From: Candidatus Scalindua sp.
Lineage (GTDB): Bacteria > Planctomycetota > Brocadiia > Brocadiales > Scalinduaceae
DNA length: 32,000 nucleotides
Direction of reading: 5' to 3'
Assembly (NCBI GenBank): GCA_031316235.1
Contig: JALDRA010000001.1
Coordinates: forward strand, 210,001-242,000
The notes under the pieces are model-generated. The model worked only from the letters and a program-made list of their open reading frames with translations, ran no database searches and was not told the origin of the DNA. Each line of letters opens with the position of its first letter. The first letter of the stretch is position 1. This document shows positions 11,512 through 17,175 of the stretch, piece by piece. A program made the translations under genes and the position numbers.

Positions 11512-12714
11512 TCACATTTTCTGATCTAAATTCTTTCCTGTTTCAATGTGCTGTAAAGACAGCACGACCTTACAGAACTCATCAACAATATGATCTTTAT
11601 TTATATTCTTTTTGGTTTTTAAGCTTTTTGCAAATGAGATAAAGTTTAATAGGCAATCTTTATCCATTTCTGCTTGTAATGACTTAATTATCCCCACATT
11701 TTGAAAACGATCAAAATTAATTATGTCACTTGTAGTATAGAATTCTTCAAAATCCTTTTCACCCGAGGTATCTGTTTTAAAGAAATAACAAGGCCACTGT
11801 TTATTCTTAATAAGCTCAGGTGCTTTCCTTTTTGCTTCCCCTTCTGATTCACACTCAAAGGGATCGAAACCATTTTGTTTTAAAAAATTTCTCGCAATAT
11901 CTGCAAAAGTTTCTTCATTTAAGCCCTGCTCTAACTTTGGAAAAAAGATATCACCATTATCGCCTAATATACAGGACAAAAGACATAATTGAGATGCTTC
12001 CTTGTGGGAAATAAAATATCTTTTTACATCATAAGGGGCAGATATTGCCTGTTGTTTTTTTAAACGATTAATAAAGCCAAATGGAAGGCTTCCATCTGAA
12101 AATGCAACATTTGCGAATCTGGCAGTTGAATAACGGTGCAGTGTCGAATGATATCGCAACACCTCTTCCATAACCATTTTACTTGCTCCCATTAAATTTG
12201 CAGGATTAGCGGCTTTATCAGAGGAGACGGAAAAGAAATTTCTGATTTTATACGGTAGATTTTCTAAAAAATCGTGCAGGAATAAAACATTAGTATCGAG
12301 CATCCGAATCAGACAATAAATATCTTTCTCCGAGCGAACATGTTTAATGGCACAAAAGTTAAGAACATAATCAAAGGAGAGAGACTCTTCGAAGTATCTC
12401 ATAAATTCCTGACTTCCAAATCCAATAGGGAGCGTTGAAAAATCCTCCGGAACACGTAAACCAGCACATGAACGAATGTCTCTAACAACCTCAACCAGGT
12501 TATTCTCGCTTAGATCGATCAGGGCCAATCCTTTTGGATTGAACTCAAGTATCGTCTTCACAACAGCTGAGCCAATTGAACCCGCAGCGCCAATAATTGC
12601 AACTCTGGCGTTCTTCAGGTTATCATTAATTGCCTTGTAATTGTTGGCGATATCTTCTTCAAATAAAGAAGCGGCTCTGCCAGTCACCATTTCTTCGTAA
12701 TCAAATAAATTCAT
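11512..12714 (-). CDS. CapD/PglF-like polysaccharide biosynthesis protein (NDP-sugar 4,6-dehydratase family)
   Basis: Rossmann motif VAIIGAAGSIGSAVV. The SSDKAANPANLMGASKMVMEE block corresponds to the STDKAV.P.N.MGA.K..AE signature of Polysacc_synt_2. Confidence 0.75.
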   Translation of the reverse strand: MNLFDYEEMVTGRAASLFEEDIANNYKAINDNLKNARVAIIGAAGSIGSAVVKTILEFNPKGLALIDLSENNLVEVVRDIRSCAGLRVPEDFSTLPIGFGSQEFMRYFEESLSFDYVLNFCAIKHVRSEKDIYCLIRMLDTNVLFLHDFLENLPYKIRNFFSVSSDKAANPANLMGASKMVMEEVLRYHSTLHRYSTARFANVAFSDGSLPFGFINRLKKQQAISAPYDVKRYFISHKEASQLCLLSCILGDNGDIFFPKLEQGLNEETFADIARNFLKQNGFDPFECESEGEAKRKAPELIKNKQWPCYFFKTDTSGEKDFEEFYTTSDIINFDRFQNVGIIKSLQAEMDKDCLLNFISFAKSLKTKKNINKDHIVDEFCKVVLSLQHIETGKNLDQKM

Positions 12715-12920
12715 GCATCTAACTTTTTAAGGTTGCCACAGTGCACAGGGACGAAACAGGAAAAATAATATAGAAACAGATACTTAGCCACAGAGGATAG
12801 TAGAGTAGAGAACAGGCGTAGTAGCTACAGGCTGTAGTTTGTGTTCACTGTTTCTCACCCTTTCGTCTGTGAGTGCCACAATATTACAACCATACCATAT
12901 TACCAACTCCCCCTCGTCAA

Positions 12921-12952
12921 ACCGTGCATGCGGTTTTCCCGCACACGGCTTT
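12921..12952 (-). ncRNA. Group II intron domain V
   Basis: The minus strand reads AAGCCGTGTGCGGGAAAACCGCATGCACGGTTT. It has the AGC triad, a GAAA tetraloop and a 2-nt bulge in the 3' strand, which is the canonical catalytic hairpin. Confidence 0.85.
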
Positions 12953-12985
12953 CCGACAGTCTTCATCTCAAGTATTCACAGGTAG

Positions 12986-14317
12986 TCAAATAAGCGCGTA
13001 TTTTGAGGGGTCGATTAGTCCGTATCTACTTACTAAGACCTTACATGCTCCTTGATTATAGAGCTTGCACTTGCGTTGACTTTTCCTCTTATAATATCTC
13101 GCCAATTTCTCTCTGAGATAATACCGGAGGTTTCTCTTCGCCTTGCCTGGATACGTTACTCCTTTTATTGAGAAATAATTAATCCAGCCTCTTATTATTG
13201 TATTCAAATCATTAGCTACATCTTGCGGAGGTTTATGCCCATTGTGCCACAGATACTCTCTTATCTTTTCCCTAACTTTCTTTTGAGATTTACAGCTTGG
13301 CTCAACGTTCCAATACTTCCTAAGCTTTCTACCAAGCACATCATCGTCAAACCTGAAAGTATGGCCAAGAAAGTCAAAGCTCTCATCAAAGGCATTTACT
13401 ATATTACTCTTATCCTCGTTAAGCTTTAGCTTCATCCTCTTTAGCAGTTTATTAAGGTCGTCAAGTGCTCTCTGCGGAATTCGTTTTGCCATCAATACCC
13501 AATCATCGCAATAACGAATGATCTTGATTCCACTTTGATAGAATGCACCACCCTCTCTGTTCACTGCTTTATCGAGCAAATGAAGATAAATGTTTGCTAA
13601 TAATGGTGAAATTACTCCCCCCTGCGGTGTTCCGAGCTTGTTTTTCTTCCCACCTGTAAGTCTGCCGTTCTCCATCACTGGCGCTTTTAACCACATTTTT
13701 ATAAGGTGCAGTACATTTTTGTCGCTTATCCTCTTGCCTACCAGCGTTAACAGTTCCTTATGTGGAATCGTGTCGAAGTAGGCGCTCAGGTCAGCATCAA
13801 AAATATCACACTTTCCTAGCCTCAGATTCTTCTTGATTTCCGTTACAGCACCTTTGGCTGAACGTTTCGGTCGAAAACCATAAGAGCTGTCTTCAAAATC
13901 CGCCTCAAAGATCGGTTCTATTACAAGCTTTACCGCCATCTGTAGTATCCTGTCTTTTATCACAGGAATTCCCAATGGACGAGTTTTGCTGTTGGCTTTA
14001 GCTATATACACTCTTAGTACCGGCTGTGGTTTATAGGTTCTGTTTTCAAGTTCCTCTACTATTTCAGCAAGGAACTTGTCTACTCCATATATTTCCACAT
14101 CCTCAAATGTCTTCCCATCTACTCCGGCGCTTCCTCTATTGGCTTTACAGCGCTTGTAGGATTCTCTTAGAAAATGAGGCAGTCTCACCTTGTCATACAA
14201 TACATAAAAACGAAATGTTTCCTCCTGTTTGGCTTTTTGATATAGTTTACGCTGAAAATCTCGGACTTTTTCCTTATCGCTCATTTGCGATTTAGGTCTT
14301 GTTTGTAGGTCGCCCAA
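12986..14317 (-). CDS. Group II intron reverse transcriptase/maturase
   Basis: RGSAGVDGKTFEDV, RPLGIPVIKDRILQMAVKLVIEPIFEADF, SYGFRPKRSAKGAV, DADLSAYFDTIPH, GTPQGGVISPLLANIYL, and IIRYCDDWVLMA (a YCDD variant of YADD). Maturase X block RGWINYFS. No HNH/En domain after it. Confidence 0.9.
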   Translation of the reverse strand: MGDLQTRPKSQMSDKEKVRDFQRKLYQKAKQEETFRFYVLYDKVRLPHFLRESYKRCKANRGSAGVDGKTFEDVEIYGVDKFLAEIVEELENRTYKPQPVLRVYIAKANSKTRPLGIPVIKDRILQMAVKLVIEPIFEADFEDSSYGFRPKRSAKGAVTEIKKNLRLGKCDIFDADLSAYFDTIPHKELLTLVGKRISDKNVLHLIKMWLKAPVMENGRLTGGKKNKLGTPQGGVISPLLANIYLHLLDKAVNREGGAFYQSGIKIIRYCDDWVLMAKRIPQRALDDLNKLLKRMKLKLNEDKSNIVNAFDESFDFLGHTFRFDDDVLGRKLRKYWNVEPSCKSQKKVREKIREYLWHNGHKPPQDVANDLNTIIRGWINYFSIKGVTYPGKAKRNLRYYLREKLARYYKRKSQRKCKLYNQGACKVLVSRYGLIDPSKYALI

Positions 14318-14882
14318 TACAATATCCTCTTTTCTTTGTAAACACTAACTGAAGTAATGCCCCTTCGCTCCTGTGAAGTTATAGTGTCTTCACTATCATC
14401 ACTACTATGAGCATCTCCGACTTCTCATTATCCCACAATACTTTTCGGCTAGCCTTATAGTATTCCGTTACGGTCATCAGCCTGAATAATGAGACCTCCC
14501 ATGTTCATACATATACCGTTTACAAGCATACCATCACTCATAACTCCGACGATCCCACATACCTTTGTACCGTTTTATTTCGTATGCAGTTACAGGTTTC
14601 GCCATCTCCGGGAGGCTCACCAATCGCATTGGTGTAACGAAGCCAGCGTGTTCGCTTTCGCTACGGTCTGCCTGTTTGCTTACAGGGAACTTGGATGCAC
14701 TCATCGCTGATTACACCCTCCCACGAAACTTACCGTTTCTTTGGCTACCGTCCGAACGGTCAATTGACGGGTTGGAATTTCACCAACTGACATATGTACG
14801 CCTCATGGCGTACCAGAGAGCACAGAGAAATAAAACATAGTAACAAAAACTTAGCCACCGATTACAATAAACCAACCATGTG

Positions 14883-14996
14883 TTACGTCTTACGCCCTAT
14901 GGCTTACGTCTTACGTCTTACGTCTTAAGACATACAACTTACCACTTACCACTTAGGACCTACCACTTATAACTTATATGACTTACGGCCTACGGC
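14883..14996. repeat. Heptanucleotide tandem array, consensus TTAC(G/C)(T/A)C
   Basis: 14 units in unbroken phase at 14883-14980: TTACGTC TTACGCC CTATGGC TTACGTC TTACGTC TTACGTC TTAAGAC ATACAAC TTACCAC TTACCAC TTAGGAC CTACCAC TTATAAC TTATATG. After a 2-nt slip come TTACGGC CTACGGC. Confidence 0.95.
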
Positions 14997-15010
14997 TTAT
15001 AAAAGCAATT

Positions 15011-15051
15011 CTCTGTGTACTTTGTGGCAACGAAATAGTCCGCCGAAGGCG
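15011..15051 (+). repeat. 41-bp post-stop-codon repeat, copy A
   Basis: CTCTGTGTACTTTGTGGCAACGAAATAGTCCGCCGAAGGCG matches 15702-15742 at about 35/41 positions. It lies 6 nt 3' (in the minus-strand sense) of the stop at 15057. Confidence 0.85.
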
Positions 15052-15056
15052 CTACT

Positions 15057-15401
15057 TTAAAGCATTTCTTCAGTATTAATGGACGTTACAAACCTGCCTC
15101 CATGGATAGTTACTTCTATTGGAACATCAAGAATCAGATAGATCTCCGGAAAGTTCTTTTTTATGCCCGTCCACTGACCGAAAGATAAGTAAGTGGGCAT
15201 ATCCGGTGAGAGATAAGCCACATGATCATAATGGTCCGTATAGAGAAAAAAGAAATCTCCCTCTTCAACCTTTGGGTTTTCATAGGGGCATGCTTTCATA
15301 TATCGAACAGGACCGTTAGCGTGACAGAGCCCAATTACAATCAGTAATGCTAAACAGAAGACAACAAGAGCAATCTTTACATCATTAACAAAATGAGACA
15401 T
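15057..15401 (-). CDS. Hypothetical small membrane-anchored or secreted protein
   Basis: Start moved to ATG 15401 (MSHFVNDVKIALVVFCLALLIVIGLCHANG, a signal/anchor-like segment). No recognisable family. The gene is bracketed by the 41-bp repeats. Confidence 0.45.
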   Translation of the reverse strand: MSHFVNDVKIALVVFCLALLIVIGLCHANGPVRYMKACPYENPKVEEGDFFFLYTDHYDHVAYLSPDMPTYLSFGQWTGIKKNFPEIYLILDVPIEVTIHGGRFVTSINTEEML

Positions 15402-15701
15402 TTTAAAGAAGTTTATAAAATTTGATTTAACCAAATATGCTATGTACCAAAAAGACTTCATTAAATTTATTGTATAGGTAATTTCCATTCTAATCCGTGA
15501 CAACACATAGGTTATGCAAAAATAGTTTCTTTTTTTGCCACAGAGGATACAGAGATCTCAGAGAATTGCTTTTATATTGAAGTTTTCAGGCTTTGAAAAG
15601 GTCTTCAAATTATAACCATTTTTGGAATTTCTGAGACGTAAGTGTTCAGGATAAAATAACAAGTTGTTTCTTCCCGAAGCCTAACTCTTTTTCTCTGTGC
15701 T

Positions 15702-15742
15702 CTCTGTGTACTCTGTGGCTAAGAAATAGTCCGCTGAACGGG
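15702..15742 (+). repeat. 41-bp post-stop-codon repeat, copy B
   Basis: CTCTGTGTACTCTGTGGCTAAGAAATAGTCCGCTGAACGGG lies 12 nt 3' (in the minus-strand sense) of the glycosyltransferase stop at 15754. Confidence 0.85.
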
Positions 15743-15753
15743 AAGGCGGTAAT

Positions 15754-16980
15754 TTATTGACCAACTAAATCTGTAAGAAACTCCTCAAGTTTCAAATATT
15801 CTTTGTTTCTATCAAATCTTTCTTCTACTAACTTTCTGGCATTTTTCCCCATCTGTTTGCTTCTTTCCTTATCATTGATAATTATTCTAATTGCATTGAC
15901 TAAGCTATGGACATCTCCTGCCTTATACTGAAGCCCCGCCTGTTTTTCATCCAACAACCCTTGAAGTTCTCCCGGGATTGAGTTGATTACAGGGAGTGAA
16001 GCAGCAAAATAGTCAAAGACCTTATTAGGAAATGTTTGAGGTGCATCGGGCGCATAAGCATTGAGGCCAACTGTACTGAGACCAAGCACATGTACCATGT
16101 CTGAATAACCGAGCATTCCCGTAAATGCTATGTTGTGTATGCCTTCCTCTACAGCTTTCTTTTTAAGCCGAGGATATTCAGGGCCATCTCCAGCTATGAT
16201 GAACTTCACATTAGAGTTCTTCATAAAACAAACGGCGGCATCTAAAATCGTATCTAAATCATAAGTTCTACCGAAAGTCCCGATATACGTAATCCAAACA
16301 TCTTCTATCTCTTTTTTATGAAGAAAATTGTTAGGTGTTATTTTCTGGCTATCAAAAAAACATAAATCTATACCGAGATGCAAGACCTTACCTGGCTTTG
16401 AATTCCTGGAAGCGCTGAGACCTCTCTCAAAATAGTCTTTAGATACGGCCATCAGCGCATCTGCATTTCTATAAATAGAATCTACCTTTTGAAAAAGTCG
16501 CCATAAAACAATCTTGCCTATAGGTTTCAAATACCCTGGCAAAATAAAGAGGTATAAATCGGGCCATAAATCCTGAATGTCTATTACGATCTTTGAGTTA
16601 AACTTTTCTCCAACCCTTAATGCTGCATCAGCAGATTCCAATGGCGGAATACTGGCAAGGATAATATCTGGTCTTTCCTTTGCTTTCAGAGCCTCAGCTT
16701 CAAATCGTCTACCATAGAGGTAATGATTATACAATCTGGCAAAGCCTATATTCTTTTTATAAGCTGGTGTTGGTATCTGTTTTATCGTTAAATTTGCATT
16801 AATTTTCTCTGTCTTGGCTTTGGAAGATCTGTATTGTTTACTCATATGAAAGAAATTGGATGTCCACCAGGTAACCTTGTGTCCTTTTTCAGACAACATG
16901 TTGGCTATAAATGCGTATCGCCCGGGGCGAAAGGATTCACCTGGCAAAGGATCAAAAGGGTTAACAATCCAGATGCGCAT
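15754..16980 (-). CDS. GT4-family glycosyltransferase (WbuB-like)
   Basis: MRIWIVNPFDPLPGESFRPGRYAFIANMLSEKGHKVTWWTSNF is a WbuB-type N-terminus, and a C-terminal GT1/GT4 fold block is present. The start is set at ATG 16980 because the 25 upstream track residues are translated from spacer element copy II. Confidence 0.85.
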   Translation of the reverse strand: MRIWIVNPFDPLPGESFRPGRYAFIANMLSEKGHKVTWWTSNFFHMSKQYRSSKAKTEKINANLTIKQIPTPAYKKNIGFARLYNHYLYGRRFEAEALKAKERPDIILASIPPLESADAALRVGEKFNSKIVIDIQDLWPDLYLFILPGYLKPIGKIVLWRLFQKVDSIYRNADALMAVSKDYFERGLSASRNSKPGKVLHLGIDLCFFDSQKITPNNFLHKKEIEDVWITYIGTFGRTYDLDTILDAAVCFMKNSNVKFIIAGDGPEYPRLKKKAVEEGIHNIAFTGMLGYSDMVHVLGLSTVGLNAYAPDAPQTFPNKVFDYFAASLPVINSIPGELQGLLDEKQAGLQYKAGDVHSLVNAIRIIINDKERSKQMGKNARKLVEERFDRNKEYLKLEEFLTDLVGQ

Positions 16981-17004
16981 AAAAAAGGCTCCGATTAAAT
17001 GTGC

Positions 17005-17175
17005 TATACTAAAACCGATTTGGTTTTCTGGCCTGCCTGTGCGTAAGGAACGCACGTAGACAGGTAAAATCCGAGATAAAATTGAGCGAATAAAGTCCTC
17101 GGCGTTTTTTGTCCGGGGATAACTGCAACCAGGCTTCAGTTTTTGAAAAAACTAAAACCAAATCGGTTTTAGTAT
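17005..17175 (+). repeat. Modular spacer element, copy II (MITE-like, perfect 22-bp TIRs)
   Basis: ATACTAAAACCGATTTGGTTTT (17006-17027) is the exact reverse complement of AAAACCAAATCGGTTTTAGTAT (17154-17175). The internal block 17059-17115 is 54/57 identical to 18107-18163. Confidence 0.9.

Follow-up and report, generated by a model that had tools for sequence, protein, structure and literature searches.

The window analyzed here, a stretch of 32,000 nucleotides from Candidatus Scalindua sp., carries an array of heptanucleotide repeats in which we recognize, with somewhat more confidence than doubt, a solitary and imperfect member of the widespread GTAAG-NN class, born by slippage and now a neutral spacer in a species-specific glycan cluster. 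The data establish that the array exists and lacks a partner, as well as its polarity and its relatives.

On the plus strand, the array starts with 14 heptamers in a single phase (14883-14980, 98 nt), followed by a 2-nt slip (AC) and by two more units that end at 14996. This parse had been given in an earlier note made from the letters alone, together with the division into two sub-blocks (TTACGTC-type, then TTACCAC-type), the nearly fixed TA...C columns and the placement of the array between a group II intron (5′ end at 14813) and an ORFan gene (stop codon 15057-15059), and all of it was confirmed. The first block consists of four exact TTACGTC units plus TTACGCC and CTATGGC. It is followed by the transition units TTAAGAC and ATACAAC, and then by the second block, with two TTACCAC units, TTAGGAC and CTACCAC, and by the decayed tail units TTATAAC and TTATATG. 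Past the slip, the units are TTACGGC and CTACGGC. The parts of the array are the following.

14883-14996, minus strand (coding strand): heptamer array of 16 units, from Tandem Repeats Finder and hand parse
14883-14924, coordinates on the plus strand: TTACGTC block
14925-14938, coordinates on the plus strand: transition
14939-14966, coordinates on the plus strand: TTACCAC block
14967-14980, coordinates on the plus strand: TTATAAC/TTATATG part, after which comes the 2-nt slip
14983-14996, coordinates on the plus strand: two out-of-phase units

Tandem Repeats Finder reported period 7 at 14883-14927 (score 62) and at 14933-14969 (score 46). The array is far above chance, as its lag-7 identity over 98 nt was 0.736, compared with 0.271 ± 0.046 (maximum 0.46) in 20,000 shuffles. 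Columns 2 and 3 are T and A in 16 of 16 units, and column 7 is C in 15 of 16. Most of the variation is held by columns 4-6 (chi-square P = 0.013), a value that overstates the case, like the other column-variation P value given below, because units copied by slippage are not independent. On the coding (minus) strand the array takes the form (GTAAG-NN)n, and 15 of its 16 units contain TAA or TAG. Since each unit consists of GTAAG and two variable bases, these stop codons return every 7 nt and thus fall in all three frames. The array had also been described as prone to slippage, which is weakly true, the longest perfect run being 25 nt (3.6 units).

The minus strand carries every gene in this region, and together they constitute a glycan cluster, with glycosyltransferases, Wzy, a flippase, a methyltransferase, a GH123-like protein, a CapD-like protein, an aminotransferase and a sugar transferase. 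The genes closest to the array are listed here.

11512-12714, minus strand: CapD-like Polysacc_synt_2 gene, the next gene downstream of the array
15057-15401, minus strand: ORFan with a hydrophobic N-terminus, 114 aa long from ATG or 149 aa from a GTG farther upstream
15754-17055, minus strand: GT4 glycosyltransferase gene, which precedes the ORFan

The array is non-coding. It lies between the stop of the ORFan (15057) and the start of the CapD-like gene (12714), and the frames that reach it are only 29-30 aa long. When the intron is left out, about 155 nt separate the array from the CapD-like start. Its polarity is sense; the ORFan stop is 60 nt before the array, with a module of another repeat (E, described below) between them, and, in contrast to typical members of the class, no stop codon abuts the array. 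The last codons of the ORFan, GAAATGCTTTAAAG (minus strand, 15057-15070), resemble GAATTGCTTTTATAAG just before the array (14997-15012), a weak likeness of 13/16 with two gaps. Were the intervening 58-nt E module an insertion, its removal would bring the ORFan stop next to the first heptamer, the arrangement typical of the class.

The ORFan gave no family match, its only counterpart among 5.8 billion proteins was itself, in a cluster of 2 contigs with the identical ORFan, and no relatives were found in public collections of genome contigs and metagenome contigs. Similarly, DNA and protein searches for an orthologous locus in 40 related genomes and four chosen ones returned only distant paralogues (≤29% identity).

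Local alignment of the reverse-complemented array to its flanks and to the whole window gave no significant inverted partner; within 1.5 kb, the best inverted match was 9 nt long (P = 0.12). Folding was not significant either for the array (z = -1.4) or for the whole spacer (z = -0.9). The Rfam search found only the group II intron, to which a lenient threshold added a meaningless SmY match (E = 1.4). Consensus scans showed no terminator-like site tied to the array, no more promoter-like sites than in shuffles, and no promoter hexamer pair across the array. A role of the array as a ribosome landing pad was rejected, since the 3′ tail of the 16S rRNA, CACCUCCUUUCU, is not complementary to the unit. 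The fold, Rfam, promoter, terminator and 16S tail tests thus gave no evidence for a locus-specific function of the array. In a non-coding array that no promoter hexamer pair spans, gaining or losing units would have no obvious read-out.

Three nonamers TCTCTGTGN make up the E repeat, and GGC(T/A)AAG often follows them. E occurs five times inside a 3-kb part of the window, and no copy was found elsewhere in this genome. In the order, 50 of 91 genomes contain it, the reversed control pattern giving 0 matches, and in two of them (G030 and G032) it brackets GxxExxY (TIGR04256) genes. The E copies of the window and the intron are placed as follows.

12732-12799, minus strand: 3′ half of an intron-cut E copy (12783-12799) and another partial E copy, located in the CapD-like gene leader
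12800-14813, minus strand: group II intron, with an RT/maturase ORF at 12986-14317 and domains V-VI at 12800-12953
14814-14866, minus strand: 5′ half of the intron-cut E copy (14830-14814) and a partial GGTGGCTAAG piece
14998-15056, plus strand: 3′ module after the ORFan stop, an E copy (TCTCTGTGN nonamers) with a short GC hairpin
15530-15576, minus strand: inverted E copy upstream of the ORFan
15690-15742, plus strand: E copy (15690-15723) and hairpin, just past the stop codon of the GT4 glycosyltransferase gene

Homologous E-plus-hairpin modules thus follow the stop codons of the ORFan and of the preceding glycosyltransferase, the former being 89% identical to the latter (15701-15738). The E copy at 15530-15576 pairs with 14998-15035 as an inverted repeat of 28-36 nt, which places the ORFan between inverted arms. 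The intron sits inside an E copy, as its joined flanks are identical to the E copy at 15690-15723 in 32 of 34 positions. Its ends, 12800 and 14813, are exact because a second copy, 99.7% identical, is present in the same genome (G000:C1:2099296-2101324). Both intron copies start with GTACG and not with the usual GTGYG. The second one lies outside any E repeat, and the two have in common TCTGTG at +6 to +11 of the 3′ exon. The array itself was rejected as an intron target, since heptamers are absent beside the second copy and the insertion site in the window is an E repeat, 69 nt off the array. The array is surrounded by other repeat debris, with E arms bracketing the ORFan and an intron in one E copy.

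Period 7 dominates the long tandem repeats of this genome. Among tracts of at least 98 nt with at least the purity of the array, 13 had period 7, 3 had period 9 and 1 had period 11; none of that length and purity had period 5, 6, 8 or 10. Tandem Repeats Finder listed 45 period-7 rows in the genome, with GGTTCAG, ATGGCTG, CATTCAT, TTCTGCA and CTCGAAA among the other units. A genome-wide search for (TTACNNC)n had been proposed in the earlier note as part of a test of its reading, and the outcome is split: no other array of three TTACNNC units was found in this genome, the window locus being the only one, while arrays of the same units are common in other genomes. Most of the period-7 arrays lie 0.3-3 kb from one of the 21 matches of the genome to PF05635, a four-helix-bundle family. 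At intact PF05635 genes, the start of the array coincides with the stop codon, and an inverted array frequently lies upstream. The window array is one of about seven period-7 arrays situated far from PF05635, its nearest match being 11.7 kb away, and no PF05635 remnant was detected beside it, neither by the family search of the genome nor by tblastn of seven members against 14700-15800. Solitary GGTTCAG arrays, with the same unit as cassette arms, are found at C1:684 kb and C1:1255 kb.

Other heptamer arrays of the genome likewise combine a conserved core with variable columns beside it. In a GGTTC-NN array of 47 units (C1:100095-100438), variation is confined to two or three adjacent columns (chi-square P = 9e-9, inflated by the same dependence between units). 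This uneven variation hints at a constraint or a biased process and not at plain neutral decay. The conserved core of these other arrays does not contain the stop codon, so that stops in every frame are not the common constraint. A perfect (CTCGAAA)9.4 array was observed at G000:C1:1781975-1782040 (66 nt, 100% identity), 62 nt upstream of a small minus-strand gene, and it is the best candidate of the genome for a slippage-variable tract.

Relatives of the window array are numerous in the order. Arrays of four TTACNNC units (≤2 mismatches) were detected in 29 of 91 genomes, where chance alone would give about 0.01 per genome, with units such as TTACTGC, TTACACC, TTACAAC and TTACTCC. Both TTACGTC and TTACCAC occur in one genome, G078, where the closest array was found (L020:4011-4125). 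The two arrays can be aligned in phase over ~100 nt; their sub-blocks follow in the same order, and one stretch agrees in 22 of 23 bases. When the unit order of the window array was shuffled, the score with G078 was matched in 3.8% of trials (P = 0.04), and common descent of the two arrays is thus suggested, not proven. A TIGR02436/PF05635 gene precedes the G078 array, which begins at the stop codon of the gene and forms its 3′ arm; an arm in direct orientation lies upstream, and an E copy follows 135 nt downstream.

By our own tally of five genomes, most GTAAG-NN arrays of the order have no PF05635 gene (present at about 2 of 35 loci). Many of them are inverted pairs placed back to back, which form a hairpin between genes. 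GTAAGAC arrays are also present in three further Planctomycetota genomes belonging to other families, as inverted pairs with loops of 75-400 nt, one of which contains E-like and CGGACTATT motifs, as in the window. In a distant high-GC planctomycete (locus L128, G352:C69:28020-31040, at 1078-1521), inverted GACGTAA arrays surround a 365-nt loop with long GC-rich palindromes, in which the motifs GCCACAAGGACACAGAGA and CGGACTATTCG nearly match the E-plus-hairpin module of the window.

The class extends well beyond the order, as exact (GTAAGAC)3 was found in at least 120 metagenome contigs (GC 0.34-0.73), some of them perhaps not bacterial. At 41 of the 71 metagenome loci with enough flank, a frame of at least 100 aa enters the array on the GTAAGAC strand and is terminated by a TAA within it, compared with 10 of 61 on the opposite strand. 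These arrays yield protein tails such as RRKT, and none of the 41 upstream proteins ending in arrays is related to another. Between co-directional genes, the metagenome arrays were sense in 18 cases and antisense in 4. Likewise, among the array segments of the order, a frame of at least 100 aa enters the array on the sense side in 9 of 39 and on the antisense side in 0 of 39. Typically, GTAAG-NN arrays take up the spacer between two cistrons and stop about 20-70 nt short of the next start. The excess of sense-side frames and the strand bias make them polar elements located at gene ends, on the coding strand, and this polarity suggests a role or a mechanism at the level of RNA or transcription. 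A four-helix-bundle ORF, sought with a small home-made profile, was found beside 2 of 80 metagenome array loci, and an inverted partner at 16 of 80. Between convergent genes, two inverted arrays make a hairpin in which each gene ends in its own sense arm (metagenome L132-L211; order L253-L272).

The earlier note had drawn a parallel with the STRR repeats of heterocystous cyanobacteria, whose units CCCCAGT, TTGGTCA and CAACAGT are dispersed in many genomic copies. These are heptamer tandem arrays in non-coding DNA for which, to our knowledge, no function has been settled. The parallel holds insofar as the window array is likewise an intergenic heptamer array, in a genome dominated by period 7. 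Nevertheless, it is not a member of the STRR family, because both unit and lineage differ: its TTACGTC/TTACCAC unit is present once in the genome with no dispersed family, and the host is an anammox planctomycete, the best RecA matches being Ca. Scalinduaceae (88%) and Ca. Scalindua sediminis (86%).

TAACTGA direct repeats of marine Beggiatoaceae, Cyanobacteria and Bacteroidetes occur in sets of 2-6, a few nucleotides upstream of start codons (MacGregor, 2015; PMC4679880). Like these repeats, the array class is mixed with other heptamers and has a patchy phylogenetic spread; the window array differs from them in its unit, its number of units (16) and its position, 60 nt past a stop and about 155 nt before a start. 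With respect to the heptanucleotide class of long simple-sequence repeats (LSSRs; Mrazek et al., 2007), as far as it is summarised in PMC4679880, nothing essential differs. LSSRs have units of 1-11 nt, and the window array consists of head-to-tail 7-nt copies beyond chance length at a non-coding site, and it is tandem and intergenic in a genome that favors heptamers. Compared with that summary, its particular features are its imperfection, its two sub-blocks and its conserved core next to variable bases.

The cassettes of PF05635/TIGR02436, annotated as "23S rRNA intervening-sequence protein", are the remaining point of comparison, with examples in G078 (L020:3563-4125) and at six loci of the present genome. 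The units, the order of sub-blocks and the sense polarity of the window array match the 3′ arm of G078 (P = 0.04 for the order, as above), and an E repeat is near both. In contrast, the window array has no adjacent PF05635 gene, no partner arm and no start at a stop codon. No paper linking heptamer arrays to such gene families was found in the literature.

This comparison raises the possibility, which we consider unlikely, that the array is nothing but the functionless, orphaned downstream arm of a small-gene cassette, either of the PF05635 type or of the ORFan unit itself. The rest of the cassette would have been lost by recombination between its arms or displaced by insertion of the E-bracketed ORFan. 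The former route gains from the orientation of the G078 arms, which are direct repeats, so that recombining them could remove the gene and leave a single array behind. Such an origin is consistent with the location of most period-7 arrays of the genome near PF05635 matches, with the intact genes whose array starts at the stop codon, with the solitary GGTTCAG arrays bearing the cassette-arm unit, and with the fact that the closest array, that of G078, is itself such a 3′ arm, equal in units and order and followed by an E copy after 135 nt. However, there is no PF05635 remnant within 11 kb and no inverted partner, the conservation of order relative to the G078 arm reaches only P = 0.04, and GTAAG-NN arrays seldom accompany PF05635 genes elsewhere, as seen at about 2 of 35 loci in the five genomes and 2 of 80 in the metagenomes. 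It is quite unlikely that the array is a functional cis element of the operon transcript or of the DNA, whether as a putative platform of GUAAG cores at 7-nt spacing for a binding protein or as a putative insulator with stops in all frames between cistrons. By analogy, such an element might resemble the post-transcriptional role proposed for TAACTGA repeats, and a regulatory role has been proposed for comparable heptamers (MacGregor, 2015; PMC4679880). The TA..G core, kept in both the window array and the G078 arm while the neighboring bases vary, argues in favor of such an element, as do the strong sense polarity of the class with its abutment to stop codons and the typical filling of intercistronic spacers up to about 20-70 nt before the next start. 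Nevertheless, we know of no binding protein, the array has no significant structure, the 16S rRNA tail does not complement the unit, a unit found at one locus of its own genome fits a regulon poorly, and the conserved core of the other arrays of the genome is devoid of the stop codon. A cis-acting role is kept alive as a minority view by the conserved core and by the polarity of the class.

The proposal of the earlier note, that the array could act as a spacer of variable length upstream of the CapD-pglE-pglC part of the cluster, has the least support, given the impurity of the array and the lack of an evident read-out for changes in its unit number. A phase-variable contingency spacer, in which gain or loss of units would tune the expression of these genes, thus appears very improbable, even if surface-glycan clusters are a frequent setting of contingency loci, slippage may happen in heptamer tracts, and indels of 7 nt in such repeats distinguish closely related Cyanothece strains (PMC4679880). 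Contingency repeats are characterized by a long perfect tract, in frame or between promoter elements, and the array has none, its perfect run not exceeding 3.6 units. Moreover, about 155 nt and a 2-kb intron lie between the array and the next start codon, and the genome contains a far better candidate for slippage in the (CTCGAAA)9.4 tract.

We hence return to the reading of the array as a slippage-born, neutral member of the GTAAG-NN class. Arrays of this class are normally elements of the coding strand lying directly 3′ of a gene, whose stop codon they often supply, and they occur alone or as hairpin-forming inverted pairs, some of which enclose small selfish genes. The window array may go back to a small-gene cassette of the G078 kind, in which it would have been the downstream arm; its birth and the amplification of its two sub-blocks would have proceeded by replication slippage or unequal exchange between units. 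It would now persist as harmless spacer DNA, presumably neutral and with no role specific to the locus, in an operon stretch that has gathered other repeats and an intron. The spacer between the ORFan and the CapD-like gene is probably transcribed, and the sole built-in property of the array would be the stop codon that it places in all three frames of the operon transcript.

For the glycan cluster of this Scalindua strain, the array is ordinary and the reading of the cluster is unchanged. The polarity observed at the level of the class is the part worth following up. Tentatively, and with more doubt than conviction, we propose that GTAAG-NN arrays go beyond slippage debris and are polar elements of 3′ gene ends across many bacterial phyla. 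Such arrays would replace the stop codons of unrelated genes and keep a core of 4-5 nt while the flanking 2-3 bases vary, and inverted pairs would be hairpins between genes or around small selfish genes. If this were true, it would imply either that arrays insert or grow at gene ends by an undescribed mechanism, or that they share a role at transcript 3′ ends or between cistrons. Two regularities are at stake here, namely that arrays on the coding strand often supply the stop codons of unrelated genes, and that variation is limited to two or three adjacent positions. Should they be general, bacterial heptamer arrays would be structured elements of gene ends and not random microsatellites, and the old question of the role of STRR-like repeats would become testable.
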